A DNA stretch of 64,000 bases, from contig VMFR01000001.1 of assembly GCA_007376135.1 (NCBI GenBank), forward strand, positions 452,360 through 516,359. The letters run 5' to 3'. This DNA is from Parcubacteria group bacterium Gr01-1014_31 (lineage in GTDB: Bacteria > Patescibacteriota > Patescibacteriia > Buchananbacterales > GWA2-38-13). Below the pieces are notes generated by a model that worked only from the letters and a program-made list of their open reading frames with translations, had not been told where the DNA came from and did not search any database. Positions 3,060 to 59,135 of this stretch are shown piece after piece (positions within the stretch are counted from its first letter, which is position 1; every line of letters starts with the position of its first letter). A program made the translations under genes and the position numbers.

Positions 3060-4925
3060 TCAGTAGGCTTCGCACCCCAGCCTGTCGCTGGTCGGGTCAA
3101 CCCCCAAGGATGCCCCGGGGTACGGCGGCCGTGCGCCCCCCAGCAGCTGGAAACGGTTGATGAAATCCGCGTCCTTGAGATCCTTGACCCCGTCGTCGTT
3201 GGCGTCCATCGCGTCGTCGCAGTTCGGATACACGTAGCACAGCCCCTGGTTGACCTTGCACTGGAGGGAATTTGGCTGCTCGCAGCCGGGCGCGGCCGAC
3301 AGGCACGTCACGTGGTCTTTCACCGACTGTCCGTCGGCAATATCCACGCGGCCGTCGTGGTTGGCGTCGCCGCGGATGAACGCCACATCGGTGTGATTGG
3401 TATTGCCGAGGGCATACCCCGGCTGTGCCGCCGGCATCGCGTTGACCGCCTTGCTGTACGGGAACGTATACACCTGAACATTAAGCCGTCCCCGGGTGGT
3501 TCCATAATCAGAACGGAAATAATCAACGACGACTTCAAGCGTGCGGTCGCGGTTTAAATCGGCCACGGCGACACCGACGAGCGCGGAGTAGACAGGTGAT
3601 TGCCAGATCGCCACGCCGCGCTGGTCGAAAATAACGACTCGGGTCTCATCCATGCTCCCGACCGATTTTCGCACGATTGCGATCACCTCTTCGGCCGGCC
3701 CATCATCCATGTTGTGCAGTCCAACAATGGACACTCTATCTGCGGCGCCGTAACGCACCGTCAGCTGCGGCTGGCCGCTCAAAGAGAACGACTTTACGGT
3801 ATTATGGCCATCAGTGACTACTATTGCGTTGTTATGGACGACTGGGCGGCCAATTACCTCATCGTAGGTCGGCGTAATAGCGGCGACCCATAACGGGGTG
3901 CCATCCTGATCGAGGGCAACAAGCCTCCCATCGTCGTCGACATAGACCAACTCGGTATACAAATCGCTGTCGACGTTCGCCACAGCAACCTCGGACGACG
4001 CACCGCTGCGGCTCCACAGTCTTTTCCCGTTACCATCAATGACAAAGAACGTTGAGAGATTATTCGCAACGATCTGATGCCGCCGGCTTTCCACATCCTG
4101 CAGCTGAGCGGCGACGGGGGCGATCGACCCGCCGGCAAACTCCCAGATCTGCGCTCCTTCAGGGCTGAACGCCACAGTTTTCTGACGTTCAGGGTTACCA
4201 TTGGTAGCGACAACTTCCAAACGGTCATCACCGTCTAAATCCATGACGACCGGTATCAGATACGAGCCCCCCGCCGACCAAAGTTTTCGCCCGCTGGCAC
4301 CGTCCAGCGCCACCAACCCGGCATTCGTAGTGCCAAATGCGGCGTACACCACCTCCTGCGTGCCATTGCGGTCAAGGTCGGCGACCACCGGAGAACGGTA
4401 CACGGCCCGGCCGATGGCGTCCGCACGCCACAACTCACGGCCATTGGAAGAGATCACCACGAGCTCATACTGGTCGGATTCGCCCGCCAGGAGCACTTCG
4501 AGCTGTCCATCGCCGTTCACATCCGCGACCACCGGGTGCGGGGAGTACACCGAGCTGCCATCGGCACCCTGGAAAGACCACAATGGCCGAGCCACTTCCT
4601 GGCAGCTCGCGGTGCAACCCACGCCCGGCGGGTCGCACTGCTCGCTTCCCTCCACCAGACCATTGCCGCACACGGCCGTGTTCACGTTGACGTTGGTATT
4701 GCCGAAGTTGGTGATGGTGCCGTAGTTCAGCCCGCTATTCACCGCGGTTCCAAGCGAAGCCATCCGGAAACGGCCGGGATATAAGCCCTTGGCCACGTTG
4801 ACACCCAGCAGCGCCGCATAAAATCCGCCGGCCACGGGCAGCACCGTCAACGCAACGAGGGTCAAAAATGCGGTTGCGACAACTGGCTTGGTGCCGGTCT
4901 GCGTTTCCAAGAATGGACGTAGCAT
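3060..4925 (-). CDS. secreted FG-GAP repeat protein with N-terminal Cys-rich repeat and C-terminal dockerin-like Ca-binding repeats
   Basis: Motifs DLDGDDRLEVV and DLNRDRTLEVVVD (FG-GAP). C-terminus has DANHDGRVDIADGQ and DANDDGVKDLKDAD (dockerin-like DxNxDGxxxxxD x2). VCGNGLVEGSEQCD is a Cys-rich repeat. The track start 4952 lies inside the putative -10 box, so the start is placed at the internal ATG at 4925. Confidence 0.5.
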   Translation of the reverse strand: MLRPFLETQTGTKPVVATAFLTLVALTVLPVAGGFYAALLGVNVAKGLYPGRFRMASLGTAVNSGLNYGTITNFGNTNVNVNTAVCGNGLVEGSEQCDPPGVGCTASCQEVARPLWSFQGADGSSVYSPHPVVADVNGDGQLEVLLAGESDQYELVVISSNGRELWRADAIGRAVYRSPVVADLDRNGTQEVVYAAFGTTNAGLVALDGASGRKLWSAGGSYLIPVVMDLDGDDRLEVVATNGNPERQKTVAFSPEGAQIWEFAGGSIAPVAAQLQDVESRRHQIVANNLSTFFVIDGNGKRLWSRSGASSEVAVANVDSDLYTELVYVDDDGRLVALDQDGTPLWVAAITPTYDEVIGRPVVHNNAIVVTDGHNTVKSFSLSGQPQLTVRYGAADRVSIVGLHNMDDGPAEEVIAIVRKSVGSMDETRVVIFDQRGVAIWQSPVYSALVGVAVADLNRDRTLEVVVDYFRSDYGTTRGRLNVQVYTFPYSKAVNAMPAAQPGYALGNTNHTDVAFIRGDANHDGRVDIADGQSVKDHVTCLSAAPGCEQPNSLQCKVNQGLCYVYPNCDDAMDANDDGVKDLKDADFINRFQLLGGARPPYPGASLGVDPTSDRLGCEAY

Positions 4926-5654: not shown

Positions 5655-5741
5655 TGGTGGGCAGGCCAGGATTCGAACCTGGGTAGCCATTACGGCGCCT
5701 GATTTACAGTCAGGTGCAATTGACCGCTCTGCCACCTGCCC
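5655..5741 (-). tRNA. tRNA-Tyr (anticodon GTA), long variable arm
   Basis: GGGCAGG...GCAG-AGCGGTCAATT-GC, anticodon loop CTGTAAA, variable arm of 16 nt, T-arm CAGG-TTCGAAT-CCTGG, CCA encoded. Confidence 0.85.
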
Positions 5742-5744
5742 AAG

Positions 5745-5987
5745 TTAACCATGAACCGTCCTCCGGAATGCCTCGCCGCCCTTATAACTCTTTAACTGCA
5801 TTTCGCGACGGTACGCTGCGGCTTTTGTTTCAAAGAATTCCTTGTAGACCATGATCCACGGTCGCCAAGCCTTGGTCGACCGCACCTCGCCGCAGTTATG
5901 CTGACTGAGGCGTGTCCGCCAGTCTGCGGCATGACCGATGTAATGCCGGCCATTCTGGGAACTCTGCAACACATATACCCAGCTCAT
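5745..5987 (-). CDS. GIY-YIG nuclease family protein (UPF0213/YhbQ-like, stand-alone URI domain)
   Basis: MSWVYVLQSSQNGRHYIGHAADWRTRLSQHNCGE...WRPWIMVYKEFFETKAAAYRREMQLKSYKG matches the GIY-YIG core. GAGGGG Shine-Dalgarno sequence lies 6 nt upstream of the ATG. Confidence 0.7.
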   Translation of the reverse strand: MSWVYVLQSSQNGRHYIGHAADWRTRLSQHNCGEVRSTKAWRPWIMVYKEFFETKAAAYRREMQLKSYKGGEAFRRTVHG

Positions 5988-6078
5988 ATGGCCCCTCATC
6001 ATTGGGGAGGTCGGGTGCAATTTCCCGCCACCGAAATTTTCTTACCTAAGGTAGGCGGGACCCCGCCGAAGGCGGTGG

Positions 6079-6099
6079 GACCGCTCTGCCACCTGCCCA
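6079..6099 (-). pseudogene. 21-nt exact duplicate of the tRNA-Tyr 5' end (acceptor + D-stem); tRNA fragment
   Basis: gaccgctctgccacctgccca is identical to 5722-5742. Downstream sequence diverges into GC hairpins, so there is no complete cloverleaf. Confidence 0.6.
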
Positions 6100-6165
6100 C
6101 GGCGTGTGGTGGTAAAAGTACAGCGTCGGAGGGTTCCCCTCCGCCACTCGACTGAAGCCGTTGGT

Positions 6166-6220
6166 CGGATCTGAACCGGCGACCTACTCCTTACCCATAC
6201 TAGCACACCCCCCTGCCATC
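6166..6220 (-). pseudogene. degenerate copy of the 3' half of tRNA-Thr(GGT)
   Basis: About 45 nt matches tRNA-Thr(GGT) from the anticodon loop to the acceptor with 3-4 substitutions (TTCGAAT->TTCAGAT, GTCGG->GCCGG). The 5' half is unrelated. Confidence 0.5.
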
Positions 6221-6225
6221 GCCTT

Positions 6226-6298
6226 AGCCGTTGGTCGGATTCGAACCGACGACCTACTCCTTACCATGGAGTTGCTCTACCAACTGAGCTACAACGGC
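6226..6298 (-). tRNA. tRNA-Thr (anticodon GGT)
   Basis: Acceptor GCCGTTG/CAACGGC, D-arm AGCTCAGTTGGTAGAGC, anticodon stem ACTCC/GGAGT with loop ATGGTAA, T-arm GTCGG-TTCGAAT-CCGAC. Confidence 0.85.
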
Positions 6299-6305
6299 TT
6301 AGGTA

Positions 6306-7315: not shown

Positions 7316-8197
7316 CTAGCGGGATCTCGACACTGCCCGCCCGGCGCTGCCGAACACCTTTAATTTCCCTTCCACCACACGCTGCACGGCGAGCGTCGCC
7401 GGACCCAGGTAGGTACGAAGATCATACTGGCCGCGCTGCTTCCCCAGCGTGCGCCGCAACGACTGGGTAAACGCGATCCTCAACTCGGTATCCACGTTGA
7501 TGATGCGAATACCCCGCCGGACAGCGGCGCGGATCTGTACGGGCGCGACGCCCGATCCGCCGTGCAACACTAGGGGTACCTTGGCGACTTTAGCAATGGC
7601 CGAGATCCGCGGCAGGTCCAGCCGTTCACGGCCGCGGAACGCCCCGTGCAGGGTGCCCACCGACACCGCCAGTGTGTCCACGCCGGTCGCGCGCAGATAT
7701 TCGGCCACACCCGCGGGGTCGGTCAGATATTGGCGCGCTGCGGCAACGCCGCGCAATTTCGTCAGACCCTCCTTGCCGAAGATCACGCCCAGCTCGCCCT
7801 GCACCCACACCCCGGCCCGATGGGCGTAATCAACGGCCTGGTGGGTAGCGGCGATATTGTTCTCCAGCGGCTGCTCGCTGGCGTCGATATGCACGGAAGA
7901 AAACCCGGCATCCACGCACTCGCGTACCGCGGCGAAACTGCGGCCATGGTCGAAATGCAACGCTACCGGCACGTCCCCACCGACATGCCGAGAAACCGTC
8001 CGGATGACATCCGCGATCGGTTTGAGCTCGGCGTACTTGATGGTCTTTTCGGAGATCTGCACGATAACCGGCGACCGCAGATTGACGGCGGCGCGCACGA
8101 TCGCCAACGTCACCTCAAGGTTGACGGTATTGAACGCGCCCACGGCGTAGCGGCGCCGCACGGCGTCCTGCATGATGTCCTTAAGCGGTACCAGCAT
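7316..8197 (-). CDS. fbaA: class II fructose-1,6-bisphosphate aldolase
   Basis: Motifs VALHFDHG and LVLHGGSG, with GAFN at the N-terminus. Start trimmed to MLVPLKDIMQD (the ATG directly abuts an inverted-repeat element). Confidence 0.85.
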   Translation of the reverse strand: MLVPLKDIMQDAVRRRYAVGAFNTVNLEVTLAIVRAAVNLRSPVIVQISEKTIKYAELKPIADVIRTVSRHVGGDVPVALHFDHGRSFAAVRECVDAGFSSVHIDASEQPLENNIAATHQAVDYAHRAGVWVQGELGVIFGKEGLTKLRGVAAARQYLTDPAGVAEYLRATGVDTLAVSVGTLHGAFRGRERLDLPRISAIAKVAKVPLVLHGGSGVAPVQIRAAVRRGIRIINVDTELRIAFTQSLRRTLGKQRGQYDLRTYLGPATLAVQRVVEGKLKVFGSAGRAVSRSR

Positions 8198-8305
8198 ACC
8201 CAGTAAGACAACGGTCACCGCGTGACCTTTTCGTTATCTCTCGTAAAGTTATTCGCATATGGTTATATCACCGTGTTCGATCTGTCCGTTGTCCTACTGG
8301 GCATG
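8195..8305. repeat. IR-bracketed intergenic element E1 (terminal inverted repeats CATACCCAGTAAGACAAC / GTTGTCCTACTGGGCATG)
   Basis: 17/18-bp inverted repeats flank about 75 bp that contain the GGTCACGCGTGACC palindrome. The left repeat includes the fbaA ATG. The right repeat lies inside the 3' end of tpiA and encodes a C-terminal extension. Confidence 0.55.
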
Positions 8306-9069
8306 GGGTTGAGGGCGGCGGAAATGACCGCCAAGAACGTTGCGGCGTCCAAACTCGCGCTGCCCACCAGCACGCCGTGCAGGGTCGGCAGCTGCGTGAA
8401 CGACGCCACGTTGCTTGGATTGACGCTGCCGCCGTACACGATCTGCACCGAGCGCTGCAGCACGGCCGCGCCGTACAGGTCAATGATGATGTGCCGAATG
8501 ACCTCGGATGCGTACTGGACTTCGTCCGGGGTCGCCTCAATGCCGGTACCACCGGTGCTGATCGCCCACACCGGTTCGTAGGCGACCACCAACCGGTCGT
8601 CCGGCCCAAGCGTTACCCCTTGCAGCGCCGCCTGCAGTTGGCGGATGAGCACGTAATCTTTTTGGCTGCCGGAACGCTCCTGGTAATTTTCCCCAATACA
8701 CAGCACCGGCGTCAGCCCCGTACGCAGGGCCGCCTCCAGTTTCCGGTGCACCTGCCCGTCGGTTTCCTGCATGTGTTCCCGGCGCTCGGAATGCCCCAAA
8801 ATGACATACTGACAGTCCAGCTGGCGCAGATCGGCCGGCGAAACCTCGCCGGTGAATGCGCCCTGCGTTTCCCAAAAACAATCCTGCGCGCCAAGACGCA
8901 ACGTGCTGCCCTTCACGGCTGCCGCCACGTGCGCCAAGCTCAAGAACGTCGGGCACAAAACGACCTCAGTGCCCTGCGGCAAGTGCCGCGCGGACTTCAC
9001 CATCGCCTGCGCCAGCGCGACACTCTGCAGGACGTCCAATTTCATTTTCCAATTCGCGATGGCTAGCAT
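8263..9069 (-). CDS. tpiA: triosephosphate isomerase (about 15-aa C-terminal extension)
   Basis: Motifs NWKM, GHSERR, AYEPVWAISTG and YGGSV. Start trimmed to MLAIANWKMK. The last about 15 codons (NPMPSRTTDRSNTVI) are encoded by element E1. Confidence 0.85.
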   Translation of the reverse strand: MLAIANWKMKLDVLQSVALAQAMVKSARHLPQGTEVVLCPTFLSLAHVAAAVKGSTLRLGAQDCFWETQGAFTGEVSPADLRQLDCQYVILGHSERREHMQETDGQVHRKLEAALRTGLTPVLCIGENYQERSGSQKDYVLIRQLQAALQGVTLGPDDRLVVAYEPVWAISTGGTGIEATPDEVQYASEVIRHIIIDLYGAAVLQRSVQIVYGGSVNPSNVASFTQLPTLHGVLVGSASLDAATFLAVISAALNPMPSRTTDRSNTVI

Positions 9070-9071
9070 AC

Positions 9072-9605
9072 TCAATAGTATACACCGTCCGGAACAAACC
9101 AACCCAACAGGGCCGAACCGCTGTAGGTAACGGCCAGCATGATGCCGCCCGCGATCAGCAGCCCCAGCAGAATAAGCGGCAGCGCCCGGCGCGAAGGAAT
9201 GCCAAACAGCCAAGCGGCCAGCGACGCGGTCCACGCGCCGCTAAGCGGCAGTGGCAACGGGAAAGCGACGAACAGCAGCAGCGCGAATTCGCCGTACCGC
9301 TCATACTTCTGTGAGAACTTGCCGCGGGTCCGCGCAAACAGCCAGGAAAAGAAACGTTCGGCCAGCCTGGACCGGCGCTGTAGCCACCGTGAAACTGGTT
9401 CGGCCAAGGAAAGCACCAGCAGCGCGACCAGGAAACTCCCGGCGACCGCGCTCGAGAATGCCACGCCCGCCGGCAGCCGGTACTTCAGGATGGCGAATGG
9501 GATGGCGACGGACAGCTCCACCGATGGCACCATCGCGATAAGTGCGGTGCCCAACGGCGGCGGCAGCACGGCAACCCACGAGAAGAGGGCTTGGAAAAAA
9601 TTCAT
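9072..9605 (-). CDS. putative small multidrug export-family membrane protein (Sm_multidrug_ex/COG2426-like)
   Basis: Four predicted TM helices. ...VELSVAIPFAIL... and ...PLPLSGAWTASLAAWLFGI resemble PF06695. Start trimmed to MNFFQALF. Confidence 0.45.
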   Translation of the reverse strand: MNFFQALFSWVAVLPPPLGTALIAMVPSVELSVAIPFAILKYRLPAGVAFSSAVAGSFLVALLVLSLAEPVSRWLQRRSRLAERFFSWLFARTRGKFSQKYERYGEFALLLFVAFPLPLPLSGAWTASLAAWLFGIPSRRALPLILLGLLIAGGIMLAVTYSGSALLGWFVPDGVYY

Positions 9606-9633
9606 GCGGGAAAAGATCAGGTGAACACAAGGG

Positions 9634-18667: not shown

Positions 18668-20074
18668 CTACTGCTGGCCCCGTACATCCGTCAATAGCAA
18701 GAACACTCCTGGCCGCAACAGGAACGGCTGCCGGGGCGCGGCGGGCGGCAAACTCTTCCAGGCGTCACCTTTGGCCGCGGCAATGATAAAATCGTAGCGC
18801 GCCAACGGCGGGAGGGGTTGCTTGATGGACCAATACTCCACCTGGTGCTGCCGCAGATAGAACGGCATCGGCCAATATTCGTCCGCCCACACCAACACCC
18901 GCGCGCGCGGGAGTATCCGCGTCAACGCCTGCGCCGCCGTAACAACGGAACGGTCCGTATGCTCATACGCATAAGGATTGCCGACCTGCCAGGACTGCAG
19001 CCATGAGAACTGCACCGCGAACACCGCCAGGAACGCGATGCTGGCAACGCCGCCGCCGTAGCGCAGCGCGCGGCTTTTCACATGCGCAAATCCCCAAGCG
19101 CCCAAGAGCGCCAACGGCGCGACCAGATTGATGACCAGCCACGGCGTTTTGTAATCGATGGCGCTGTAGACCACCAAGGCAAAGATCGCCCAGAGCGCGA
19201 TGCTGCGTCCCGCCACCTCGCGCCAAGCGTACCGCAGCCCAACGGCCGCCCACAGCAAAAGGGGCAACTCGAAGCGCGAGATCAGCAGCAGGTAGTAGGT
19301 CCAAGGCTTGTTGTGCCCGGCGCCTTCAAATCCCCGCGACAGCCAGGGAGCAAACCCCTGCAGCGAGTCGGCCAGTCCCGGGAGGTAGCGGAAAAAGCTG
19401 GAAAACAGGCTGACGTAGACGAGCACCAGCAGCGCGGAGGCGAGGGCAAGGTATTCCCACTTGTGGGGTTGCCGCAAAGCCGCCAGGCCGCGCCGCCAGT
19501 GGACGATGCAAATCAGCCCCATAACGGCCAGCACGATGACGGCGGTTTCCTTGGTGGTCACCAGCAGTGCCACGGCCGCCGCCAGCATCGGCAGGAACGC
19601 CAGATCGCGACGCTGCAGCAGGGTGACCGTGAGCATGACCGCCGCCAGCGAGAACAGCACCAACGACGATTCATGGATGGAATATCGCGAGTAATAGGTC
19701 ATGGATGGCGACAGCAGCAAGGCAACGGCGGCCGGCAGCGCGAAACGCGGCTCCCTCCGCCACCACACCAGCGGTATGGCAACCAATGCGATCCCCGAGA
19801 TCATTGCCGGCAGCCGCAGCGACAGCTCCGACACGCCGAACGCCAGGAATGAAAAAAAGACCGCGAAAAAATACAGCGGTCCGTGGTAGTTGTTCGGGTC
19901 GTAGCGGAACTGCCCGCTCTCGCTGATGCGCTGGGCAAACCAATAATTCACGCCCTCGTCGTGGTGCAGCGGCCGCAAGGCCGGCAGGGCCAGACGCGAA
20001 ATGATGGCCAAGGCCAGCACTGCGGCACCCGCCACGACCACCCACCGCCTTCGCACGATCGCTTGTTTATCCAT
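18668..20074 (-). CDS. membrane glycosyltransferase, GT-C fold (GT39/ArnT/PMT-like)
   Basis: At least 10 TM helices. The hydrophobic pattern and N-terminal loop resemble ArnT/PMT-family transferases. Start trimmed to MDKQAIV. It sits between secY and adk, which is unusual. Confidence 0.45.
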   Translation of the reverse strand: MDKQAIVRRRWVVVAGAAVLALAIISRLALPALRPLHHDEGVNYWFAQRISESGQFRYDPNNYHGPLYFFAVFFSFLAFGVSELSLRLPAMISGIALVAIPLVWWRREPRFALPAAVALLLSPSMTYYSRYSIHESSLVLFSLAAVMLTVTLLQRRDLAFLPMLAAAVALLVTTKETAVIVLAVMGLICIVHWRRGLAALRQPHKWEYLALASALLVLVYVSLFSSFFRYLPGLADSLQGFAPWLSRGFEGAGHNKPWTYYLLLISRFELPLLLWAAVGLRYAWREVAGRSIALWAIFALVVYSAIDYKTPWLVINLVAPLALLGAWGFAHVKSRALRYGGGVASIAFLAVFAVQFSWLQSWQVGNPYAYEHTDRSVVTAAQALTRILPRARVLVWADEYWPMPFYLRQHQVEYWSIKQPLPPLARYDFIIAAAKGDAWKSLPPAAPRQPFLLRPGVFLLLTDVRGQQ

Positions 20075-20082
20075 GGGAAAAG

Positions 20083-20193
20083 TATACCCGGTAGGACAAC
20101 TTCCGGGAATATCACTGTACCGGACAACGATGCACACACTCCCCCCGACGACCGAACGGAGCAGTCACCCGGCAGGTTGTACTACCGGGTATA
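20083..20193. repeat. IR-bracketed intergenic element E2 (TIRs TATACCCGGTAGGACAAC / GTTGTACTACCGGGTATA)
   Basis: 17/18-bp inverted repeats 8 nt upstream of the GT39-like ATG. Same terminal inverted repeat family as E1 and E3. Confidence 0.5.
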
Positions 20194-20196
20194 GCA

Positions 20197-20235
20197 CACG
20201 CAAAAAAAACCGCCCGCCGGCGGCGCGGACCGCAA
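20197..20235 (-). terminator. rho-independent terminator after secY
   Basis: GC-rich hairpin (CCGCGCCGCCGGCGGGCGG) followed by T8 on the minus strand. Confidence 0.45.
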
Positions 20236-20244
20236 CAAGCCGGT

Positions 20245-21567
20245 CTACCACCCCTCGTAGTCGCGCATCGTCAGCTGCGACTCGATCTGTTTGGTCGTCT
20301 CAATGACCACCGACACCACGATCAGCAGACTCGAACCCGATAAGGTCAGCGTCTGCAGCCCGGTAAAATACTGTAACGCGATGGGCAACACGGCGATGAG
20401 TGCCAGGAACAGCGCGCCGGCCAGCACAATGCGGTTGGACACCTGCCCCAGATACTCCGCGGTCGGTCGGCCCGGCCGGATGCCCGGGATGAACCCGCCC
20501 TGCTTCTGGAGGTTCTCGGCCACCTGCTCGGGATGGAAGACGACTTCGGTGTAAAAGTAGGTGAAGCCGAACACCAGCAGGAAGAACATGACGCCGTAGC
20601 CCAAGGGGTTGGCCTGGAGATTGAAAAAGCCGTAGACGGCGTTGGCCGCCCGCGCGACCGTGGTGTTGGTCGCCTGGATGAAGAACTGCGCGATCATCGG
20701 CGGGAACAGCACGACGGAGATGGCGAAGATGATAGGGATCATGCCCGCCTGGTTGACGCGCAGCGGCAGGTGCGTGTTGACCCCGCCGTAGAGCTTGATG
20801 CCGCGTACCCGCCGAGCGTAGGACACCGGCACGTTGCGCTGGGCCTCGGTGATGAACACGGTCGCCGCGGTCACCACGACCGCGACGGCCAGGAACGTCA
20901 CCACACTGATGAGTTGCGAGGTATCAAAGACGGACAACGTCTGCTGGATGGCGGTCGGAATGCTGGTCACAATGCCGGCAAAGATGAGCAAACTGATGCC
21001 GTTGCCGACCTTCTTCTCCGAGATGAGCTCACCCAGCCACATCAGGAAAATGGTGCCGGCCGTCAAGGTAACAATGGTGCCGGCCAGCTGCAGGGAGGTC
21101 ATGGCGGCGATCAGCCGCACGCCCCCGGCCTGCTGCTGCTGGAGCAACGCGATCAGCCCGTAGCCCGACAACACCGCCAACGGCACGGTCAGCATCCGCG
21201 TCCACTGATTGAGCTTATGGCGGCCCTGCTCCCCTTCCTTGCTCAAGGCCTCCATCTTGGGGATGATCATGGTCAGCAGCTGGATGATGATGGACGCGGT
21301 AATGTACGGCCCAACCCCCAGCGCGACCACGGAGAAGTTCTCCATCGCCCCGCCGGAAAAAATGTTGAGCAAACCGAACAGCTGGTTGCGCTGGAAAAAG
21401 TCGCGCAGCGCCGTCACGTCGACGTTCGGCAGCGGAATGTGGGCGGCCAGCCGGAAGACGACCAAAAGCGCCAACACGTAGAGGATACTGTTGCGCAGGT
21501 CCTTGGACTTCCAGATTTTCCGCAATGGGTCAAGCAGCATGGTCGGCAATTTAGCGGTTCCCTCCAC
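20245..21567 (-). CDS. secY: preprotein translocase subunit SecY
   Basis: 10-TM SecY with conserved GGxxxxF…P and plug regions. Follows rplO. Confidence 0.9.
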   Translation of the reverse strand: MEGTAKLPTMLLDPLRKIWKSKDLRNSILYVLALLVVFRLAAHIPLPNVDVTALRDFFQRNQLFGLLNIFSGGAMENFSVVALGVGPYITASIIIQLLTMIIPKMEALSKEGEQGRHKLNQWTRMLTVPLAVLSGYGLIALLQQQQAGGVRLIAAMTSLQLAGTIVTLTAGTIFLMWLGELISEKKVGNGISLLIFAGIVTSIPTAIQQTLSVFDTSQLISVVTFLAVAVVVTAATVFITEAQRNVPVSYARRVRGIKLYGGVNTHLPLRVNQAGMIPIIFAISVVLFPPMIAQFFIQATNTTVARAANAVYGFFNLQANPLGYGVMFFLLVFGFTYFYTEVVFHPEQVAENLQKQGGFIPGIRPGRPTAEYLGQVSNRIVLAGALFLALIAVLPIALQYFTGLQTLTLSGSSLLIVVSVVIETTKQIESQLTMRDYEGW

Positions 21568-29345: not shown

Positions 29346-30053
29346 CTAGGCCTTGGCGGTGGAACCGTACACTTCCATCATCCGGTCCAAACCGGCGAGC
29401 GGCAGCACCAGCACCTGGTGGGACAGAACGTCGGCAACGTTCAAACTGTCAGCGGCAATCGTCGACACGCGGCGCAGATTACGGAAGGCCAACACCTGGT
29501 CGTCGGATTTCGGGGGTAACACCACCAAGACGCGCGGCCAAGATTTGGCTGCGGGAACTGCCGCTGCTTTCTTTTTCAATTCCGTAGCGGCCGGCTTGAC
29601 CGCTTTGCCGGGACGGAGCTTCAACGCGGTCAACAGCTGGAACGCGACCTTGGCCTTGCCGCCCAATGGTTTGATGTCATCCACCAAATGCACGGCTTCG
29701 GCCTTAGACGACAATGCCATACGCAGCGCCTGACGGCGCACCTTGCGGTTCATCTTCAGTGTAAAATTGCGGTTCGAGCGCGGACCGAACGTGATACCGC
29801 CGCCGATCCAGATGGGCGAACGGATGGAGCCGTGGCGGGCGCGCCCGGTCCCCTTCTGCTTCCAGGGCTTACGGCCGCCGCCGCGCACTTCACCGCGGGT
29901 CTTGGTATGCGCCAACACTTGGCGGGCATTGGCCTGCTGGGCGACGACCGCCAGCTGCAACAATCCCGGTTTCACGGGGACGCCAAACAGCGCGGCGGGG
30001 AGCTCACGCTCGCCGACCGCCTGACCGCTGACGTTGTAGACCTTCACTTTCAT
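29346..30053 (-). CDS. rplD: 50S ribosomal protein L4
   Basis: L4 family; …KTRGEVRGGGRKPWKQKGTGRARHGS…. Confidence 0.85.
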   Translation of the reverse strand: MKVKVYNVSGQAVGERELPAALFGVPVKPGLLQLAVVAQQANARQVLAHTKTRGEVRGGGRKPWKQKGTGRARHGSIRSPIWIGGGITFGPRSNRNFTLKMNRKVRRQALRMALSSKAEAVHLVDDIKPLGGKAKVAFQLLTALKLRPGKAVKPAATELKKKAAAVPAAKSWPRVLVVLPPKSDDQVLAFRNLRRVSTIAADSLNVADVLSHQVLVLPLAGLDRMMEVYGSTAKA

Positions 30054-30056
30054 ATC

Positions 30057-30797
30057 CTACTGGGTGGTGGTTGCCGCGGGCACGGCCGGGGCTTCCGATA
30101 TCGCGGGAACGGCTGCCGGCTCAACCGGTGCGGCCGCTTTCGCGGTCGTGAGGTCGCCCTTCCCCTGGATCACGAGCAATCCGTTGCGGCTGCCCGGGAT
30201 CGCACCTTGCACATACAAGGTATGCTCCGGGACATCCACCGCGATGATCTCCAAATTGGCGACCGTGATCTGCTCGTTGCCCATGCGGCCGGGCATACGC
30301 TTGCCAGGTCGCACCCGCTGCACGCCGCCCGCGCCGCTCGAGCCAGGCATGCGTAGCTGGTCCTTATGACCGTGGGTTTTCGGCGAACCCTTGAATCCAT
30401 GGCGCTTCACAACCCCCTGGAAACCGCGGCCCTTGGACCACCCCGTTACTTTTACCACGTCGCCGGGGACAAAGGTTTCCACCGTAATGCGGTCGCCCAC
30501 CGCCAGTGGCTTTGCCTCCTCGGGCGTCAAGCGGATCTCACGCAAGACGGCAACCGGACCGATACCCTTGAGGTGGCCGGCCTGGGGCTTGGCAACGCGC
30601 TTCCGCTTGCCGCTCGCCACCTGCACGGCGGTGTACCCGTCGCGCGATACCGATTTGATCTGCGCCACCACGCACGGCTCGGCGACCACTTTGGTCACCA
30701 CAACCGCGCTGCCGTCGGGACGGTAGCGCTGGGTCATTTCCGATTTTCGGCCGAGGATGAACTTCATACCGCGGATAAACAAAAACTGCCTCAACAA
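30057..30797 (-). CDS. rplC: 50S ribosomal protein L3
   Basis: …GFKGSPKTHGHKDQLRMPGS…. Confidence 0.85.
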   Translation of the reverse strand: MLRQFLFIRGMKFILGRKSEMTQRYRPDGSAVVVTKVVAEPCVVAQIKSVSRDGYTAVQVASGKRKRVAKPQAGHLKGIGPVAVLREIRLTPEEAKPLAVGDRITVETFVPGDVVKVTGWSKGRGFQGVVKRHGFKGSPKTHGHKDQLRMPGSSGAGGVQRVRPGKRMPGRMGNEQITVANLEIIAVDVPEHTLYVQGAIPGSRNGLLVIQGKGDLTTAKAAAPVEPAAVPAISEAPAVPAATTTQ

Positions 30798-39313: not shown

Positions 39314-40549
39314 CTATTCGTAGCGCAACGCTTCGATGGGGTTTTTGCGCGCAGCCTGCGACGCCGGGTACAAGCCGAACACCACGCCCACCAGCGTTGA
39401 GACTCCGACGCCCAGCATCACCGCCGAGAGCGGCAGCGCGTAGCCCCACTGCAAGCCCATGGCATACCGCAATACCAGCGACGCGATCCCGGAAAACATT
39501 GCGCCTAAAGCGATGCCGACCACCCCGCCGGTCCCCGTCAGCAGGATGGATTCAAGCAGGAACTGCTGCATGATGTCGCCGCCCGTCGCGCCCACGGCCT
39601 TGCGCAGCCCGATCTCGCGCGTGCGTTCGGTCACGGCCACCAGCATGATGTTCATGATGCCAATACCGCCCACCACCAGCGAGATGGCGGCGACCGACGT
39701 GAGCAGCACCGTCAGGATGGTGGACACGATGCCGATGGACGCCATGGCGTCGGCTTGCGTCGTGACGTGGAAATCGTCCTTGTCCGGGTCGGTAATGTTG
39801 TGCGATTCGCGCAGCGTCAGCTCGATATCGCGGGCCACGCGCGGCACTAAGGCCTCGGTCTGCGCCTGCACCATGATGGCATGGAAATGGTTGATGCCCA
39901 GCAGGTACTCCTGCGCCGTCGTGTACGGCACGAACGCCATCTGGTCGATGTCGATGAGACCGGCGCCCTTTTCCTTGAGCACGCCCACAACCCGGAAGGT
40001 CTTGCCCTTGATCTTCACCTTCTGGCCGACCGCGGCATCCGCACCGAACAGCTCCTCCCCCACCTTCGTGCCGATGACCACGACGCTGGCGCGCCGCCGC
40101 ACATCCTCATCCGTGAAGAAACTGCCCTCCGCGACCGCCAAATTCATGATCTCGCTGATGAACGGGTCGGTGCCGCGCATCGTGATGCGCTTGGTCTCGG
40201 TGCCGTAGACAATGGTCGCGGCGACCGCCACGGCCGGCGAAACGCGCGCGACCCCCTGGACATTGGCCGGCTGGAGGATGGCCGCAACGTCGCGCGGCTT
40301 GAGCGAGTCCGTGAAGATCTCGACGAAATCCGACGGCCCTTTCGGCTGGCGGCCCGGCTCCACGATAATGGTGCGTGATCCCAGGCCGCGGATCTGATCC
40401 AAGATGAGCTGCTCGGCGCCCTCGCCCACCGACATGACCAAAATGATGGCGGTGATGCCGATGACGATACCCAGAATCGTCAGCGCGGAACGCGACTTGT
40501 TGGCACGCAGGCCCCGGAAGGCGGTTTTCAGCGTAAAGCGCAGTCGCAT
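39314..40549 (-). CDS. ABC transporter permease (FtsX/MacB family)
   Basis: N-terminal TM helix, a large periplasmic domain, and three C-terminal TM helices typical of MacB/LolCE permeases. Confidence 0.75.
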   Translation of the reverse strand: MRLRFTLKTAFRGLRANKSRSALTILGIVIGITAIILVMSVGEGAEQLILDQIRGLGSRTIIVEPGRQPKGPSDFVEIFTDSLKPRDVAAILQPANVQGVARVSPAVAVAATIVYGTETKRITMRGTDPFISEIMNLAVAEGSFFTDEDVRRRASVVVIGTKVGEELFGADAAVGQKVKIKGKTFRVVGVLKEKGAGLIDIDQMAFVPYTTAQEYLLGINHFHAIMVQAQTEALVPRVARDIELTLRESHNITDPDKDDFHVTTQADAMASIGIVSTILTVLLTSVAAISLVVGGIGIMNIMLVAVTERTREIGLRKAVGATGGDIMQQFLLESILLTGTGGVVGIALGAMFSGIASLVLRYAMGLQWGYALPLSAVMLGVGVSTLVGVVFGLYPASQAARKNPIEALRYE

Positions 40550-40784
40550 ACCCAGTAGGACAACTTTGAAAAGATACTATTTTAAAACCGCGAAAAAAGT
40601 GGTGATCGCTGTCATTGCGAGGAGTCCCGAGCCAGTCGAGGGACAACGTGGCGATCTCGTTTTTGGTTTGACACCGAGATTGCTTCGTTTCACTCGCAAT
40701 GACGAAAGGTACCGCTCACCGCCCTGGAGGCATTGCAGAATATGGACGTAGTGGGATTCTGTCGAAGTTGTCCTACTGGGCATA
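40547..40784. repeat. IR-bracketed intergenic element E3 (TIRs CATACCCAGTAGGACAAC / GTTGTCCTACTGGGCATA)
   Basis: Perfect 15-bp inverted repeats (17 including flanks) bracket about 200 bp between the ABC ATPase stop and the permease ATG. The left repeat contains the permease start codon. Confidence 0.55.
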
Positions 40785-40787
40785 CCC

Positions 40788-41507
40788 TTATTTGACGAAA
40801 TCCGACGACGCGTGCAGCCGTTTGGCAACGGCCTGGTCGGATTCTATTAGGCCGTCGCGGACCCGAATAATGCGCCCCGCGTGTTCGGCGGTATAGGTTT
40901 CGTGGGTAATGAGGACGACCGTGTGGTTGTCGTGTTCGTTGAGCTTCTGCAAAATTTCCATCACGGCTTTACCCGACTGGGAATCCAGGTTGCCGGTCGG
41001 CTCATCCGCGAAGATCACTCGCGGCTTGTTCACCAGCGCCCGCGCGATGGCGACCCGCTGGCGTTCGCCCCCCGATAGTTTCGCCACATCAAAACCGGCG
41101 CGGTGGGACAGCCCGACCGCATCAATGGCAATTCTCGCGCGCTCGTCCCACTCGGCCGGCGGCACCGAAGAATACAAAAGCGGCAGCCGCACGTTATCCA
41201 TCACGCTGGTGCGCGGCAGCAGGTTGAACGACTGGAACACGAACCCCATTTGTTCGTTGCGCACCCGTGCCAACTCGCGATCGGTATGCTCGCCGATCTC
41301 GCGACCATCGAACCGGTAGGTGCCGGCGGTCTGGCGGTCCAAGAACCCCAGGATATGCAGCAAGGTGGATTTGCCGGACCCCGACGGCCCCATGATGGCA
41401 ACGAATTCCCCTGCGGCGATGGTAAAACTTACGCCGTGGAGTACCGGGGTCTGCAGCTCGTCGCTACTATAGACCTTGGTCAGCGCGTTGACCTCAATGA
41501 GTGCCAT
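40788..41507 (-). CDS. ABC transporter ATP-binding protein (MacB/LolD-like)
   Basis: Walker A GPSGSGKST, Q-loop, signature LSGGERQRVAIARAL, and Walker B IFADEPTGNLD. Confidence 0.85.
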   Translation of the reverse strand: MALIEVNALTKVYSSDELQTPVLHGVSFTIAAGEFVAIMGPSGSGKSTLLHILGFLDRQTAGTYRFDGREIGEHTDRELARVRNEQMGFVFQSFNLLPRTSVMDNVRLPLLYSSVPPAEWDERARIAIDAVGLSHRAGFDVAKLSGGERQRVAIARALVNKPRVIFADEPTGNLDSQSGKAVMEILQKLNEHDNHTVVLITHETYTAEHAGRIIRVRDGLIESDQAVAKRLHASSDFVK

Positions 41508-43171: not shown

Positions 43172-43258
43172 ACGTGGTAAATGAAAGCGCTATGAATCAA
43201 ATCGTAGTGATGCGGAACTCACCCATCTGGTTCACCCGCCCTTTTTCGGGGTGCGGGC

Positions 43259-43358
43259 CCCGTTAGAAAATTACTGTTCCGCTGGTCAAACGCTCCAACG
43301 ATTTCCAGCATCCAGAAATATTACAGAACACATTATTCGCAAAGTTTTCTAACGGGGC
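43259..43358. mobile_element. MITE-like 100-bp element with perfect 13-bp terminal inverted repeats (CCCCGTTAGAAAA) and a 4-bp CGGG target duplication
   Basis: Removing the element and one CGGG restores TCGGGGTGCGGGGAGTCGAACC, identical to the 3' end of the adjacent tRNA-Pro. The element interior is AT-rich. Confidence 0.5.
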
Positions 43359-43407
43359 GGGGAGTCGAACCGCCGCCGCATGCACCCTTCACCCCACACC
43401 TTTCCTC
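43359..43407 (-). pseudogene. degenerate tRNA-Pro-like copy (acceptor/T-arm retained, D/anticodon region deleted), disrupted by the MITE-like element
   Basis: Shares GGGGAGTCGAACC and GGGTGCATG with tRNA-Pro. The T-stem is mispaired (GGCGG vs CCCCG). Confidence 0.45.
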
Positions 43408-43478
43408 TCGGGGTGCGGGGAGTCGAACCCCGTCTCCATGCACCCCATGCACGTGTACTGCCGGTATACTACACCCCG
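43408..43478 (-). tRNA. tRNA-Pro (anticodon GGG)
   Basis: Acceptor CGGGGTG/CACCCCG, D-arm GTAT-ACCGGCA-GTAC, anticodon stem CGTGC/GCATG with loop ATGGGGT (G37), T-arm CGGGG-TTCGACT-CCCCG, discriminator A. Confidence 0.8.
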
Positions 43479-43648
43479 AAAGGAAAGGTGTGGGGCAATC
43501 GCACGTGGACTACCACTACCCCATACCCCGAAAAAAGGCGGGTGAAAAACGAACTTGCCCGCGATGCCGCACACCTGTGAAGTAAAAACGTGAAATGTAC
43601 GAATACCCACTCTACCGCATCGGTGCGCTCCCGGCAAGGCGTCCGGCG

Positions 43649-44274: not shown

Positions 44275-45219
44275 CTAGAGGGTCGTAATTGGTCGCGACT
44301 GGACAATGAAAAATTTCTTCTTCGCGAACGCCCACTCGATATCCTGCGGCTTACTGTAATGACGCTCAATGTCAGTGCAGAGCTTCGCCAGTTCAACGAT
44401 CTGGCGGCCGGTCAATTTTTGCACCTCTCGTTTCTCTGCGGACACGGACCGCCACACGTTGCCGCCGCTAGATTTTCGTACCAGCATTTTTTCCTGCGCG
44501 GCAATGTTGATGTCGACCAGATGGAGGTCGCGCTTATCGATGACGTAGCTGTCGGGCGTGATCTGGCCGGAAACGATAGCTTCGCCCAGGCCGAACCCGG
44601 CCTCAATGATCATCTGGTTATAGTCCTTGGTCACCGGATGCACGGTGAAGGCGATGCCAGCAACCTCGGCCTGGATCATCTGCTGCACCACCACCGCGAC
44701 CGACACTTTTGACCGTCTCATTCCTTTCTCGTTGCGGTAAACAATGGCCCGCGGCGTGAACAGTGACGACCAGCACTTCTTGACATTGCCGAGCAAAATC
44801 TTTGCCGTTGTGTTCAGATAGCTCTCTAATTCTCCCGCCCAAGAGGCAACCGAGGAATCTTCGGCGGTTGCCGAGCTTCGGACCGCGACCAGCGGGCTCT
44901 TGAGCTGGCGGAAGCGGCCCAGCACGGCCGCACTGAGATCCTTAGGAAACGCTGCGTCGTGGATAAGGTCGCGGATGATTACTGACGCCCGCTCAACGGA
45001 ATGGACGTCGCGATAGTTGACCTTAGCCAACGCGGCCCTAATCTCTTGGACCAAGTCAGCGCCCTTCAAAAACTGTTCAAACGCGGCTGCCGTGACCACA
45101 AAACCTGGCGGCACCGGAATGCCCGCGCGCGTCATTTCCCCCAACGATGCCCCCTTGCCGCCGGCCAGATGCGCGTCGGTCTTTTTTAACTGTTCAAAAT
45201 CTAGGAGATAATCCACCAT
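44275..45219 (-). CDS. stand-alone PPDK_N-type ATP-grasp nucleotide-binding domain protein (PEP synthase / rifampin phosphotransferase N-terminal domain homolog)
   Basis: GGKGASLGEM, VPPGFVVT, VRSSATAEDS…SWAG, VAVVVQQMIQ, GFGLGEAIVSG, and QDIEWA. 314 aa, ending where a fused dikinase would continue. Confidence 0.75.
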   Translation of the reverse strand: MVDYLLDFEQLKKTDAHLAGGKGASLGEMTRAGIPVPPGFVVTAAAFEQFLKGADLVQEIRAALAKVNYRDVHSVERASVIIRDLIHDAAFPKDLSAAVLGRFRQLKSPLVAVRSSATAEDSSVASWAGELESYLNTTAKILLGNVKKCWSSLFTPRAIVYRNEKGMRRSKVSVAVVVQQMIQAEVAGIAFTVHPVTKDYNQMIIEAGFGLGEAIVSGQITPDSYVIDKRDLHLVDINIAAQEKMLVRKSSGGNVWRSVSAEKREVQKLTGRQIVELAKLCTDIERHYSKPQDIEWAFAKKKFFIVQSRPITTL

Positions 45220-45228
45220 ACCGTCAGC

Positions 45229-46710
45229 CTATCGTTTTTTCACCAATTTGACCACGCCGCGATTTGCATCCACCTCAACCTCATCGCCATCCTGGAACAC
45301 CCTCGTCGCAATCTTGGTACCGATGATGCAGGGTTTGCCGAGCTCTCGCGCGATAATCGCAGCGTGGCTGGTTACACCGCCGACTTCAGCAATAATCGCT
45401 GAAGCCAATTTCATCGCCGTGACAAGTCGGGGGTTTGTCGTATGGGCGACGAGCACATCACCTTTCTCCATTTTTGTAATATCTTGCACTGTATCCACAA
45501 TTTTTACTAGCCCCCTTGCTTTTCCCGGCGAACCCGTAGCACCTTTCAATTCTTTTATATTCCTCTCAATAACTGAAGTTTGGGCAAGCAGCCAATCAAA
45601 CAAATGTTGGGCGATCTGGCCTTGATATTCATCAATTATTCCATCATGAAAATAGAGGGCAAACATTTTCTTTCTTTGGCTGAGCAAGTTGGCGTTCACT
45701 GACGCGCCTTTTAAGGTCTTGATCATTTCAAGCGGCTTGAGAAATTGCACTTGTGTAAGCGACAGAAAATGTTCTCGGGCAATTTTACAAAGGAGCGGCT
45801 CCAAAGACCAATACAACAACCAAGAGGCATCAACGCGTAAGGCTTTCATGGTAGCGATCTCTTCAAGCAATTTCGCGATTCTCGTGGCTTCCTTTGATAA
45901 TTTATATTTTTTTACCATCTCTTTTTTCCGGCGGCGGATTTCCTGTCGATATTTCGTTTCAGGTTTTATATATTTTTTGGAATTTTTTTCTTTTCTGATG
46001 AGCTTCACTCGCTCTTCAAAATAGCCAACATCATACGCCGGCCCTTGCCAATTGTATCCCAACCATGCGTATTTCTGCCAGTGTTGCTTTATTTTCTTCC
46101 CTGGCGGCCTCCCTTCGATTAAACCCAAAAGGTCTTGCTCTTCTTTCTGCAAAAAACTGTATTGCTCGGGAGTGGTGATAACGGTAAATATTTCTCCAAG
46201 AGATGACCGAGACACGCTGTTTCCTTCCAAAATTTTCTTTAATTTATCTCCGAGCAACGAACGACCCATTTCCAACAAGTTAATTGCTTGTCCCCGAAAC
46301 CACAGATGATCGTGAATTTCATACAATTTGAAGTACATTTTAGCAAGCTTTCCATTTGCAATCTTATTAACATCAAGGCGTTGTAGGCGGCGGGATTCAA
46401 CCATGAGTTTTTGGCTTAAACTCCTGATCTCATCTAAAATGTTTTTTATAAAACCGGGTTTTTTTATATCCTGTGCAAGTATTTTTTTGCCAGCAATCTC
46501 CAATTCATCATCGAGATGGTACATGAAAATATCATTATTTTTAAAAACCCAAATCCCACGAAATATGCCGGTTTTGTACATTTTATTGAGCATGTACGCA
46601 TAGGCGATTAAGGCTGACTGGACTATCCAGAGCGGGCAATTCGGAATTTTCTCAAAAAGATCCCAGCGGTAAGATTGTATTTGTTTTTTTATATCCTTTA
46701 TCGTGTTCAT
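45229..46710 (-). CDS. PEP-utilising-enzyme mobile (phospho-His swivel) domain protein, paralog 1; AT-rich gene
   Basis: C-terminus GDVLVAHTTNPRLVTAMKLASAIIAEVGGVTSHAAIIARELGKPCIIGTKIA (phospho-histidine domain). The N-terminal 380 aa are uncharacterised and Lys-rich. About 38% GC against about 68% for neighbours. Confidence 0.6.
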   Translation of the reverse strand: MNTIKDIKKQIQSYRWDLFEKIPNCPLWIVQSALIAYAYMLNKMYKTGIFRGIWVFKNNDIFMYHLDDELEIAGKKILAQDIKKPGFIKNILDEIRSLSQKLMVESRRLQRLDVNKIANGKLAKMYFKLYEIHDHLWFRGQAINLLEMGRSLLGDKLKKILEGNSVSRSSLGEIFTVITTPEQYSFLQKEEQDLLGLIEGRPPGKKIKQHWQKYAWLGYNWQGPAYDVGYFEERVKLIRKEKNSKKYIKPETKYRQEIRRRKKEMVKKYKLSKEATRIAKLLEEIATMKALRVDASWLLYWSLEPLLCKIAREHFLSLTQVQFLKPLEMIKTLKGASVNANLLSQRKKMFALYFHDGIIDEYQGQIAQHLFDWLLAQTSVIERNIKELKGATGSPGKARGLVKIVDTVQDITKMEKGDVLVAHTTNPRLVTAMKLASAIIAEVGGVTSHAAIIARELGKPCIIGTKIATRVFQDGDEVEVDANRGVVKLVKKR

Positions 46711-55244: not shown

Positions 55245-57653
<2,409 letters not shown>

Positions 57654-58819: not shown

Positions 58820-59135
58820 AGCGCTTTAAATATTTTGCCCTCACATCGATCAGATACAGCTGTAGTTGACTACCAACGTCAATCAGCGATTTTTCTAGCT
58901 GGGATAATTTTTTTGTGGATGAGGGACTATCGAGCAACAAGAACGGCGTAATCGAACTGGGTTGTACACCCAATTTGTCAGCAAGTTTGATGATAAAATT
59001 TTTGGATACCTCTTTTTGACCCGATTCGATCATCGCAACAAGGACAGTTGATACACCTAAAACATTGGCAAATTCACTCTGCGTTAAATCACTTTCATCC
59101 CGAATTTTTTTTATCAACTCCGGTAGAGTATACAT
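58812..59135 (-). CDS. XRE-family helix-turn-helix protein
   Basis: LTQSEFANVLGVSTVLVAMIESGQK is the Cro/C1-type HTH. Overlaps the RT start by 8 nt. Confidence 0.7.
   Translation of the reverse strand: MYTLPELIKKIRDESDLTQSEFANVLGVSTVLVAMIESGQKEVSKNFIIKLADKLGVQPSSITPFLLLDSPSSTKKLSQLEKSLIDVGSQLQLYLIDVRAKYLKRYV

Follow-up and report, generated by a model that had tools for sequence, protein, structure and literature searches.

The Correia/NEMIS elements of Neisseria and the ERIC/IRU elements of enterobacteria are 100–150 bp long and have long terminal inverted repeats (TIRs) that form a hairpin in the transcript. They lie within operons, occur in many copies per genome and can alter neighboring reading frames. 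Here we describe a family of similar design, found in a 64,000-nucleotide stretch of the genome of Parcubacteria group bacterium Gr01-1014_31 (contig VMFR01000001.1, positions 452,360 to 516,359), which we call the window. The window contains three copies, E1 (8195–8305), E2 (20083–20193) and E3 (40547–40784), each beside the start of a gene. The original prediction compared them to Correia/ERIC elements, a comparison that holds as an analogy and not as kinship. The TIR differs from the 26-bp TIR of Correia, and the family is not known to have sequence similarity to these elements. The present family duplicates YATG (Y is C or T) and not TA. Correia/ERIC elements are found in both orientations, whereas this family has a fixed orientation and sits exactly on start codons, and its full-length relatives encode a nuclease and not a DDE transposase.

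Free-standing GIY-YIG homing genes, such as those of the phage T4 Seg and I-TevI type, are also selfish nuclease-only genes wedged between host genes. Unlike them, the present family encodes a single domain of about 100 residues that lacks a DNA-binding domain and is closer in fold to Slx1 than to I-TevI. It has TIRs, a 4-bp target duplication, many unrelated insertion loci per genome and non-coding derivatives. IS1380/piggyBac elements share the 4-bp sequence-specific duplication, the CCC...GGG termini and the apparently precise empty sites. No DDE transposase was found in the present family, however, and the element is 5–6 times smaller. REPIN/RAYT systems likewise amplify doublets of inverted repeats, about 100 bp long and able to form hairpins, in extragenic space, but the present family has no HUH transposase, has a target duplication, is located at gene starts and not 3' ends, and its arms are not themselves palindromic. 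The best sequence and fold matches are stand-alone Slx1-like GIY-YIG proteins (UPF0213; structures 1zg2 and 1ywl), which consist of the same minimal domain. The present subfamily differs in lying inside a TIR element whose repeats encode both of its termini. A phylogenomic study of GIY-YIG proteins read the stand-alone bacterial Slx1-like members as vertically inherited repair factors (PMC1564403). A survey of rRNA insertions in the candidate phyla radiation (CPR) recorded that non-intron insertions contain GIY-YIG open reading frames (ORFs) but did not analyze them further (PMC11270868). Full-text literature searches returned no published description of a start-codon element combining TIRs with a GIY-YIG enzyme.

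Our analysis indicates, with a probability of about 0.75, that the window copies are non-autonomous or decayed members of a TIR element of Patescibacteria (CPR) whose intact form is about 300 bp long. The mechanism by which it may move is considered in the Discussion.

Empty and filled insertion sites

A close relative of the window provided direct evidence for insertion. This locus, L096, comes from an unclassified metagenome-assembled genome (MAG) and is about 95% identical. It carries the orthologue of E1 and two additional elements. One precedes tpiA, where L096 has a 100-bp element between two copies of TATG and the window has a single TATG (9067–9070, minus strand). The other precedes the gene upstream, which encodes an Sm_multidrug_ex-like membrane protein. 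Here L096 has a 98-bp element between two copies of CATG, and the window a single CATG (9603–9606, minus strand). The same sites are filled in L096 and empty in the window, which identifies the outer (C/T)ATG as a target duplication of 4 bp; its ATG is the start codon that the host gene already had. The proposal that the copies arose by MITE-like insertion (MITE, miniature inverted-repeat transposable element) of one family is borne out by these sites, the duplication and the many copies found elsewhere.

The two orthologous E1 copies, in the window and at L096 2672–2792, differ at 6 of 28 arm positions, 3 of 75 interior positions and 1 of 98 flanking positions. The arm differences include one compensatory pair, A-T to G-C. 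Faster substitution in the arms than in the interior points to correction or conversion of the quasi-palindrome at the DNA level, not to conservation at the RNA level.

Distribution and target preference of the family

One genome per species was scanned with GTTGTCCTACYGGGYAT, which gave 104 loci, and a metagenome scan was added (loci are numbered with the prefix L). Solitary matches in Streptomyces, Pseudomonas and similar genomes are at the level of chance for a 17-mer. Patescibacteria MAGs contain many matches each, arranged as inverted pairs 90–150 bp apart. The two scans yielded 97 unique copies, nearly all in Patescibacteria, with a median length of 137 bp. Most are 98–150 bp long, with a 14-bp core TIR and extensions, and the longest members reach about 300 bp.

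Both scan patterns required YAT or ATG next to one of the arms, and metagenome copies were kept only if they had a right ATG. In the set so obtained, the flanks are TATG/TATG in 75 copies, CATG/TATG in 10 and CATG/CATG in 7. Of the 97 copies, 85 have an ORF of at least 60 codons beginning at the right-hand ATG, and in 7 the ORF from this ATG runs off the contig; 92 copies thus adjoin the start ATG of an ORF that is long or truncated by the contig end. Neither the ORF test nor the secondarily found copies are affected by the YAT/ATG ascertainment. By crude gene calls in the same loci, 417 YATG sites are at start codons, and non-coding YATG sites number 586 in sense and 538 in antisense orientation. 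Uniform use of the tolerated YATG sites would therefore place about 27–42% of copies on start codons, whereas more than 90% are found there.

At least 17 copies are present in 14 loci of one Uhrbacteria MAG, and the window has 3 copies in 64 kb. Interiors are homologous within a genome, and a single orientation relative to the downstream gene is kept throughout. Copies at palindromic CATG sites also have this orientation (5 of 7 checked individually). Since these copies, L021 and L080 included, are oriented like the others, the asymmetric TATG alone does not dictate orientation.

Short copies keep 30–60 nt of each end of the full-length element. Lengths form a deletion series from about 300 bp to a 34-bp hairpin, and L197 (1109–1150) holds a 34-bp remnant consisting of the arms only. 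Tandem elements with one common TATG are found at L032 (817–1094), and at L036 (6040–6102) the right end of a full-length copy harbors a nested minimal hairpin copy. The tandem, nested and arms-only copies indicate that a duplicated site is re-used and that the deletion series is complete. Full-length and short copies with common TIRs occur together in at least two genomes (JBAYHD01 and MEWX01). Phage carriage was not indicated by IMG/VR, where all matches are solitary and apparently coding.

Small size with TIRs, a duplication checked against an empty site, window copies without an intact enzyme, multiple copies and a longer relative sharing the TIRs are all features of MITEs. In the roughly 200 loci examined, no TIR pair is 0.4–6 kb apart and no ORF other than the nuclease lies between TIRs. 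The transposase ORF between TIRs that marks a DDE insertion sequence was not found in these loci.

Full-length members encode a GIY-YIG nuclease

Members of about 300 bp at L007, L066, L180 and L205 contain an ORF of 98–101 codons that begins at the left duplicated ATG; that of L205 is broken by an in-frame stop codon. ORFs of 93–101 residues also extend from the left ATG to the right arm in L036, L211, L219 and L222. The left arm encodes the N-terminus, MPGRTT or MPSRTT. The C-terminus ends in KLS or KLY, and the stop codon follows inside the right arm, 6–8 nt before the host ATG. A one-nucleotide ‘bulge’ in the right arm is the source of this stop codon. The core TIR of the intact elements measures 14 bp (CCCGGTAGGACAAC...GTTGTNCTACCGGG), and its inner extensions are lineage-specific.

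The ORF matches PF01541, the GIY-YIG catalytic domain, with E values of 1e-14 to 1e-16. Its nearest solved structures are the UPF0213 proteins 1zg2 and 1ywl and Slx1; 1zg2 and Slx1 are the best Foldseek matches. The AlphaFold model has a pLDDT (predicted local distance difference test) of 78, and the arm-encoded termini are disordered in it. Y16, Y27-x-G29, R37 and E73 are invariant across 20 sequences and correspond to the catalytic Tyr, Tyr-x-Gly, Arg and Glu. The ratio of nonsynonymous to synonymous substitution rates (dN/dS) is 0.01–0.19 in the six pairs with estimable dS, which is largely saturated. Judged by sequence and predicted fold, the element ORF encodes a Slx1/UPF0213-like GIY-YIG nuclease under purifying selection. 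The hallmarks of this branch of the superfamily are present in the full-length relatives; the window elements retain only a 53-residue remnant, in E3.

Fifty-nine public database clusters match the nuclease, all annotated simply as ‘putative endonuclease’ or ‘GIY-YIG nuclease family protein’. Of the 25 cluster sequences retrieved, most begin with MP(G/S)RT and about half end with KL(S/Y). On either side, the gene always has a co-directional neighbor only a few nucleotides away. The wider family of small GIY-YIG proteins comprises 5949 clusters at E≤1e-3, and very few of its 150 best matches align from the arm-encoded N-terminus.

A second small GIY-YIG ORF is present in the window (5745–6020, minus strand). 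It is intact, 91 residues long and 35–40% identical to the TIR-element nucleases. It lies directly upstream of tRNA-Tyr (5655–5741), and L096 and L090 contain a similar ORF. The 5' part of tRNA-Tyr is partially duplicated (GGGCAGGTGGCAGAGCGGTC, AATTGCACC) at 6009–6021 and 6080–6105, upstream of the 91-residue ORF. The fragments look as if another nuclease element had inserted in or beside the tRNA gene. The same cluster holds a second tRNA-fragment duplication, a near-copy of the 3' half of tRNA-Thr (6225–6299) at 6155–6195, about 30 nt downstream of the gene (ggtaaggagtaggtcgccggttcagatccgaccaacggct).

The three copies in the window

Inverted pairs of the 14-nt core GTTGTCCTACYGGG are located at 8199–8212/8288–8301 (E1), 20087–20100/20176–20189 (E2) and 40551–40564/40767–40780 (E3), in agreement with the three pairs reported originally. 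Allowing up to three mismatches, GTTGTCCTACTGGG has 12 matches in the window, a number attained in none of 100 shuffles; 3.3 would be expected. Mismatches number 0–2 in each of the six genuine arms. A weak match at 30051–30064 proved to be merely the stop/ribosome-binding junction of two adjacent ORFs in the ribosomal-protein cluster. The arm ACTACCGGGTAT (e.g. 20087–20100) has an apparent resemblance, with a 1-nt gap, to the universal 16S primer 806R (GGACTACHVGGGTWTCTAAT), the complement of 16S positions ~787–799. All genes adjoining the three elements are on the minus strand.

E1 is a 103-bp non-autonomous element with 4-bp flanks, and has an orthologous copy in L096. Its order in the sense (minus) direction is CATG (8305–8302), left arm (8301–8288), interior (8287–8213), right arm (8212–8199) and TATG (8198–8195). 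It is located between tpiA upstream (8263–9069) and fbaA downstream (7316–8197), which starts at the ATG of the right TATG. E2, also non-autonomous and 103 bp long, is flanked by TATA on both sides, with the left arm in the sense direction at 20176–20189 and the right at 20087–20100. It directly follows secY (20245–21567) and its terminator, an intrinsic-terminator-like hairpin and T-run at 20202–20230 on the minus strand. The ATG (20074) of the downstream PMT_2 glycosyltransferase gene (18668–20074) is 8 nt beyond E2.

E3 is a longer, decayed copy of 230 bp, flanked by TATG on both sides, with the left arm at 40767–40780 and the right at 40551–40564. An ABC ATPase gene (40788–41507) lies upstream of it and a MacB/FtsX permease gene (39314–40549) downstream; the permease start codon is the ATG at 40549–40547 in the right flank. 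The first 76 nt of E3 match the profile of nuclease-coding full-length elements (E 3e-10). A remnant of the nuclease ORF (MPSRTTSTESHYVHILQCLQGGERY...) extends from the left duplicated ATG (40640–40783, minus strand) and is 40% identical to the L066 nuclease over 53 residues (tblastn, E 9e-06). Beyond this nuclease-like 5' part, a nested 93-bp palindromic element belonging to a second family (GTCATTGCGAG...CTCGCAATGAC, 40611–40703, no strand assigned) has taken the place of the remainder. The full-length profile matches E1 and E2 in the arms only, and their coding content is limited to short leader ORFs, with no nuclease. The comparison identifies E1 and E2 as probable deletion derivatives and E3 as a probable decayed longer copy with a nested second element.

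These boundaries modify the original description in part. The inverted core stands, whereas the outer (C/T)AT(A/G), previously included in the repeat, is a direct repeat and belongs to the target duplication. A TGATAT box was claimed for each element and is found in E1 and E2, but not in E3. Nor is the interior of E3 anonymous and unrelated sequence, as it contains the nuclease remnant and the nested palindrome. The placement of the start ATG at the gene-proximal repeat was correct: it is within the 4-bp flank in E1 and E3 and 8 nt beyond the TATA flank in E2.

Members of the second palindromic family are 70–160 bp long and are also found at L048, L058, L089, L091, L095, L173, L174 and L191. 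Their inverted pairs occur in the L048 orthologue and in seven other Patescibacteria loci, and the genomes concerned also carry start-codon elements.

E1 alters the C-terminus of TPI

The tpiA ORF reads through the distal arm of E1 and ends in NPMPSRTTDRSNTVI, with its stop codon 43 nt inside the element. The left duplicated ATG, the left arm and part of the interior encode the C-terminal tail of triosephosphate isomerase (TPI), MPSRTTDRSNTVI, and the stop codon (8263–8304, minus strand). TPI homologues with 51–78% identity end 0–8 residues past a conserved ‘..AA’ motif and do not have this tail. In L107, a more distant relative, the tpiA stop codon TAA is followed by AAAG and the ATG of fbaA, a 4-nt spacer with no element. 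Translation and comparison thus agree with the earlier view that E1 rewrites the end of TPI, with a tail of 13 residues. By its sequence, E1 appears to have replaced the tpiA stop codon and added these residues. The insertion interpretation had been staked on two outcomes, and neither went against it: the motif is abundant outside the window, and the TPI extension is missing from relatives.

In L106, a 71%-identical relative, the tpiA–fbaA spacer is 94 nt long and lies inside another inverted repeat (AAGCAGTACGTAGG ... CCTACTGCGTACTGCT; 3465–3558). As this repeat is different, the junction has been struck by another element too.

Target context, promoters and RNA structure

Shine-Dalgarno-like motifs precede the left end in only 5 of the 97 copies. 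The idea that the hairpin serves to bring a Shine-Dalgarno sequence to the ATG was rejected on this count. TANNNT boxes, often preceded by TG, are most frequent 14 to 12 nt before the left ATG (positions -14 to -12), where 27 copies have one, compared to about 1.7 per position elsewhere; this is the geometry expected of leaderless genes. A further third of copies have a co-directional ORF that ends 0–12 nt before the left arm or within it; E1, with the tpiA stop 43 nt in, is the extreme of this class. The leaderless geometry and the adjacent upstream stops indicate that ribosomes come to the targeted starts either from the 5' end or out of an upstream ORF.

The original prediction that the element supplies a promoter was not supported. 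A consensus promoter scan gave a single weak site, in E3, and nothing in E1 or E2, and the best -10 scores inside 56 scored elements of the genome scan are equal on both strands (sense 8.71, antisense 8.66). A TANNNT/-10 box lies just in front of the left end in about one third of members, which makes a transcribed leader the more likely role of the element.

In the predicted terminal stem the AUG is base-paired, and z-scores for several copies range from -6 to -7.5. The interior is rich in A in its 3' half. Effects on translation are plausible from these features, but as a consequence of insertion. RNAalifold analysis of 14 Uhrbacteria copies supported the terminal stem alone, with no covariation in the interior. 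Core G.U and A.C mismatches are symmetric, with no sense-strand wobble bias. Core stems contain a G.A mismatch in 57 copies, U.C in 10 and a bulge in about 30, and are perfect in only 3. Rfam 15 gave no match at the gathering threshold in the window and none at E≤1 in four element-bearing loci. A conserved regulatory RNA was rejected on the absence of interior covariation, the symmetric wobble pairs and the lack of an Rfam match.

Other features of the window

On the minus strand at 44275–51120, an ORF with a PPDK_N (ATP-binding) domain is followed by four tandem paralogous ORFs of 456–510 residues. The sole Pfam match of the four is a C-terminal phosphoenolpyruvate (PEP)-utilizer mobile domain, and the G+C content of the region is about 50%, compared to 62%. 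Respiratory complex genes had been considered at 45–54 kb and were rejected; the region encodes these paralogues and sugar-phosphate enzymes. Among the ORFs nearby, one of 802 residues (55245–57653, minus strand) fuses glucose-6-phosphate dehydrogenase and 6-phosphogluconate dehydrogenase domains. A reverse-transcriptase ORF (RVT_1, 325 residues) and an overlapping adjacent ORF of 107 residues are located at 57842–59135 (minus strand), where G+C content is the lowest in the window (45%). This locus could be a retron, a diversity-generating retroelement or a group II intron remnant. A tRNA-Pro gene (43407–43479) is bracketed by two nested inverted repeats (43231–43546), one of 27 nt with 89% and the other of 24 nt with 96% complementarity.

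Discussion

We propose that the nuclease encoded by the longer relatives may also mobilize the MITE-like copies. Related to a structure-specific endonuclease, it would most likely recognize the junctions of TIRs and flanks, perhaps as a branched or cruciform substrate. Staggered cuts of 4 nt at YATG would then mobilize full-length and short copies alike. The cohesive, non-palindromic TATG ends alone would yield precise excision, duplication and fixed orientation. Landing on a start codon would let an element that has neither a promoter nor a ribosome-binding site use the expression signals of the host, through leaderless or translationally coupled starts, and sense insertion at this position would be the only way for its ORF to be expressed. 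Ribosomes from the left ATG or from an upstream ORF may melt the terminal stem that pairs the AUG and reinitiate at the host ATG. The location of the nuclease stop codon, 6–8 nt before the host ATG, would fit such termination-reinitiation.

Several points weigh against this proposal. The nuclease is no more than a candidate mobilizer, and the prokaryotic insertion sequence families, those in ISfinder included, are not known to have a member with a GIY-YIG enzyme. The 3' overhangs known from GIY-YIG homing and restriction enzymes are 1–2 nt long, which a 4-nt stagger does not match. The 64-kb window contains no intact nuclease of the TIR-element subfamily. The relay by reinitiation is not uniformly supported, because leader ORFs of short copies end 4–116 nt before the host ATG, and within 30 nt in only about a quarter. 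The flank counts are partly built in because the scan patterns and filter required YAT or ATG, and the gene calls behind the YATG site counts are crude.

The copies could instead be ordinary MITEs moved in trans by a conventional transposase, for example a DDE enzyme of the IS1380/piggyBac kind, with the GIY-YIG ORF as cargo or a homing-type passenger. DDE elements typically have TIRs, CCC...GGG termini and a 4-bp duplication, and a GIY-YIG transposase is not known; in addition, the short copies amplify without coding capacity. We nevertheless consider this explanation unlikely, given that the roughly 200 loci contain neither widely spaced TIR pairs nor another ORF between TIRs. The nuclease ORF is the only coding version, in at least eight independent loci or lineages. 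It occupies precisely the span from the duplicated ATG to the right arm, owes part of its coding sequence to the TIRs and is under purifying selection. There is even less room, and in our estimate very little, for an element that is a GIY-YIG homing endonuclease gene spreading only by homing into cognate alleles, with the inverted repeats as by-products. GIY-YIG enzymes are classic homing endonucleases and the element does lie between conserved genes. However, a protein of about 100 residues with no DNA-binding domain, dozens of unrelated loci occupied in one genome, the 4-bp duplications, the tandem and nested copies and the amplified non-coding derivatives do not agree with homing.

Two further explanations assign the arms a function for the host. 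A cis-regulatory RNA, in which the stem hides the start codon or makes an RNase III site and mobility is incidental or ancient, would account for the AUG-pairing stem and its z-scores, the A-rich 3' half, the fixed orientation and the retention of one mismatch or bulge in nearly all core stems. Yet close relatives differ in presence or absence at the same gene, the arms of the E1 orthologues change faster than the interior, and the bulge is accounted for by the nuclease stop codon. Together with the covariation, wobble and Rfam results, these findings make a host-selected RNA improbable, although a regulatory effect secondary to insertion can still be present. Two identical sites of 14–18 bp, 75–200 bp apart beside gene starts, are also what paired operator half-sites for a DNA-looping regulator around promoters would look like. 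We give this possibility almost no weight, as the inner TIR extension co-varies by lineage and the E1 sites fall in a coding region. The insertion polymorphism with its 4-bp duplication and the coding full-length relatives are left unexplained by the operator pair, and the polymorphism and coding relatives likewise by a stem dedicated to sequestering the start codon, the two alternatives offered in the original prediction.

Insertion of a TIR element that encodes a nuclease in its intact form remains our preferred explanation. The window copies are best filed as MITE-like relics. The family we regard as a variant TIR transposon, and the chance that it forms a class of its own is substantial. 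More tentatively, and at slightly less than even odds, the family may be an unrecognized class of autonomous prokaryotic transposon, possibly the smallest, in which an element of about 300 bp uses a GIY-YIG nuclease as its transposase and lives on start codons with reinitiation.

If the nuclease mobilizes the element, GIY-YIG would count as a transposase chemistry beside the DDE, HUH, serine and tyrosine enzymes, and homing endonucleases, restriction-like nucleases and transposons would become linked. If the element is autonomous, 300 bp would be a new lower size limit. A nuclease of 100 residues linked to a defined 14-bp sequence may also be of biotechnological interest. For annotation of CPR genomes, the elements entail rewritten protein ends, as in TPI, spurious small ORFs and shifted start calls. 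They inflate intergenic spacers in compact operons and explain why ‘GIY-YIG nuclease family protein’ is annotated in multiple copies. As a parasitic strategy the start-codon habit is unusual, and it offers a handle on translation initiation in the largely uncultured Patescibacteria.

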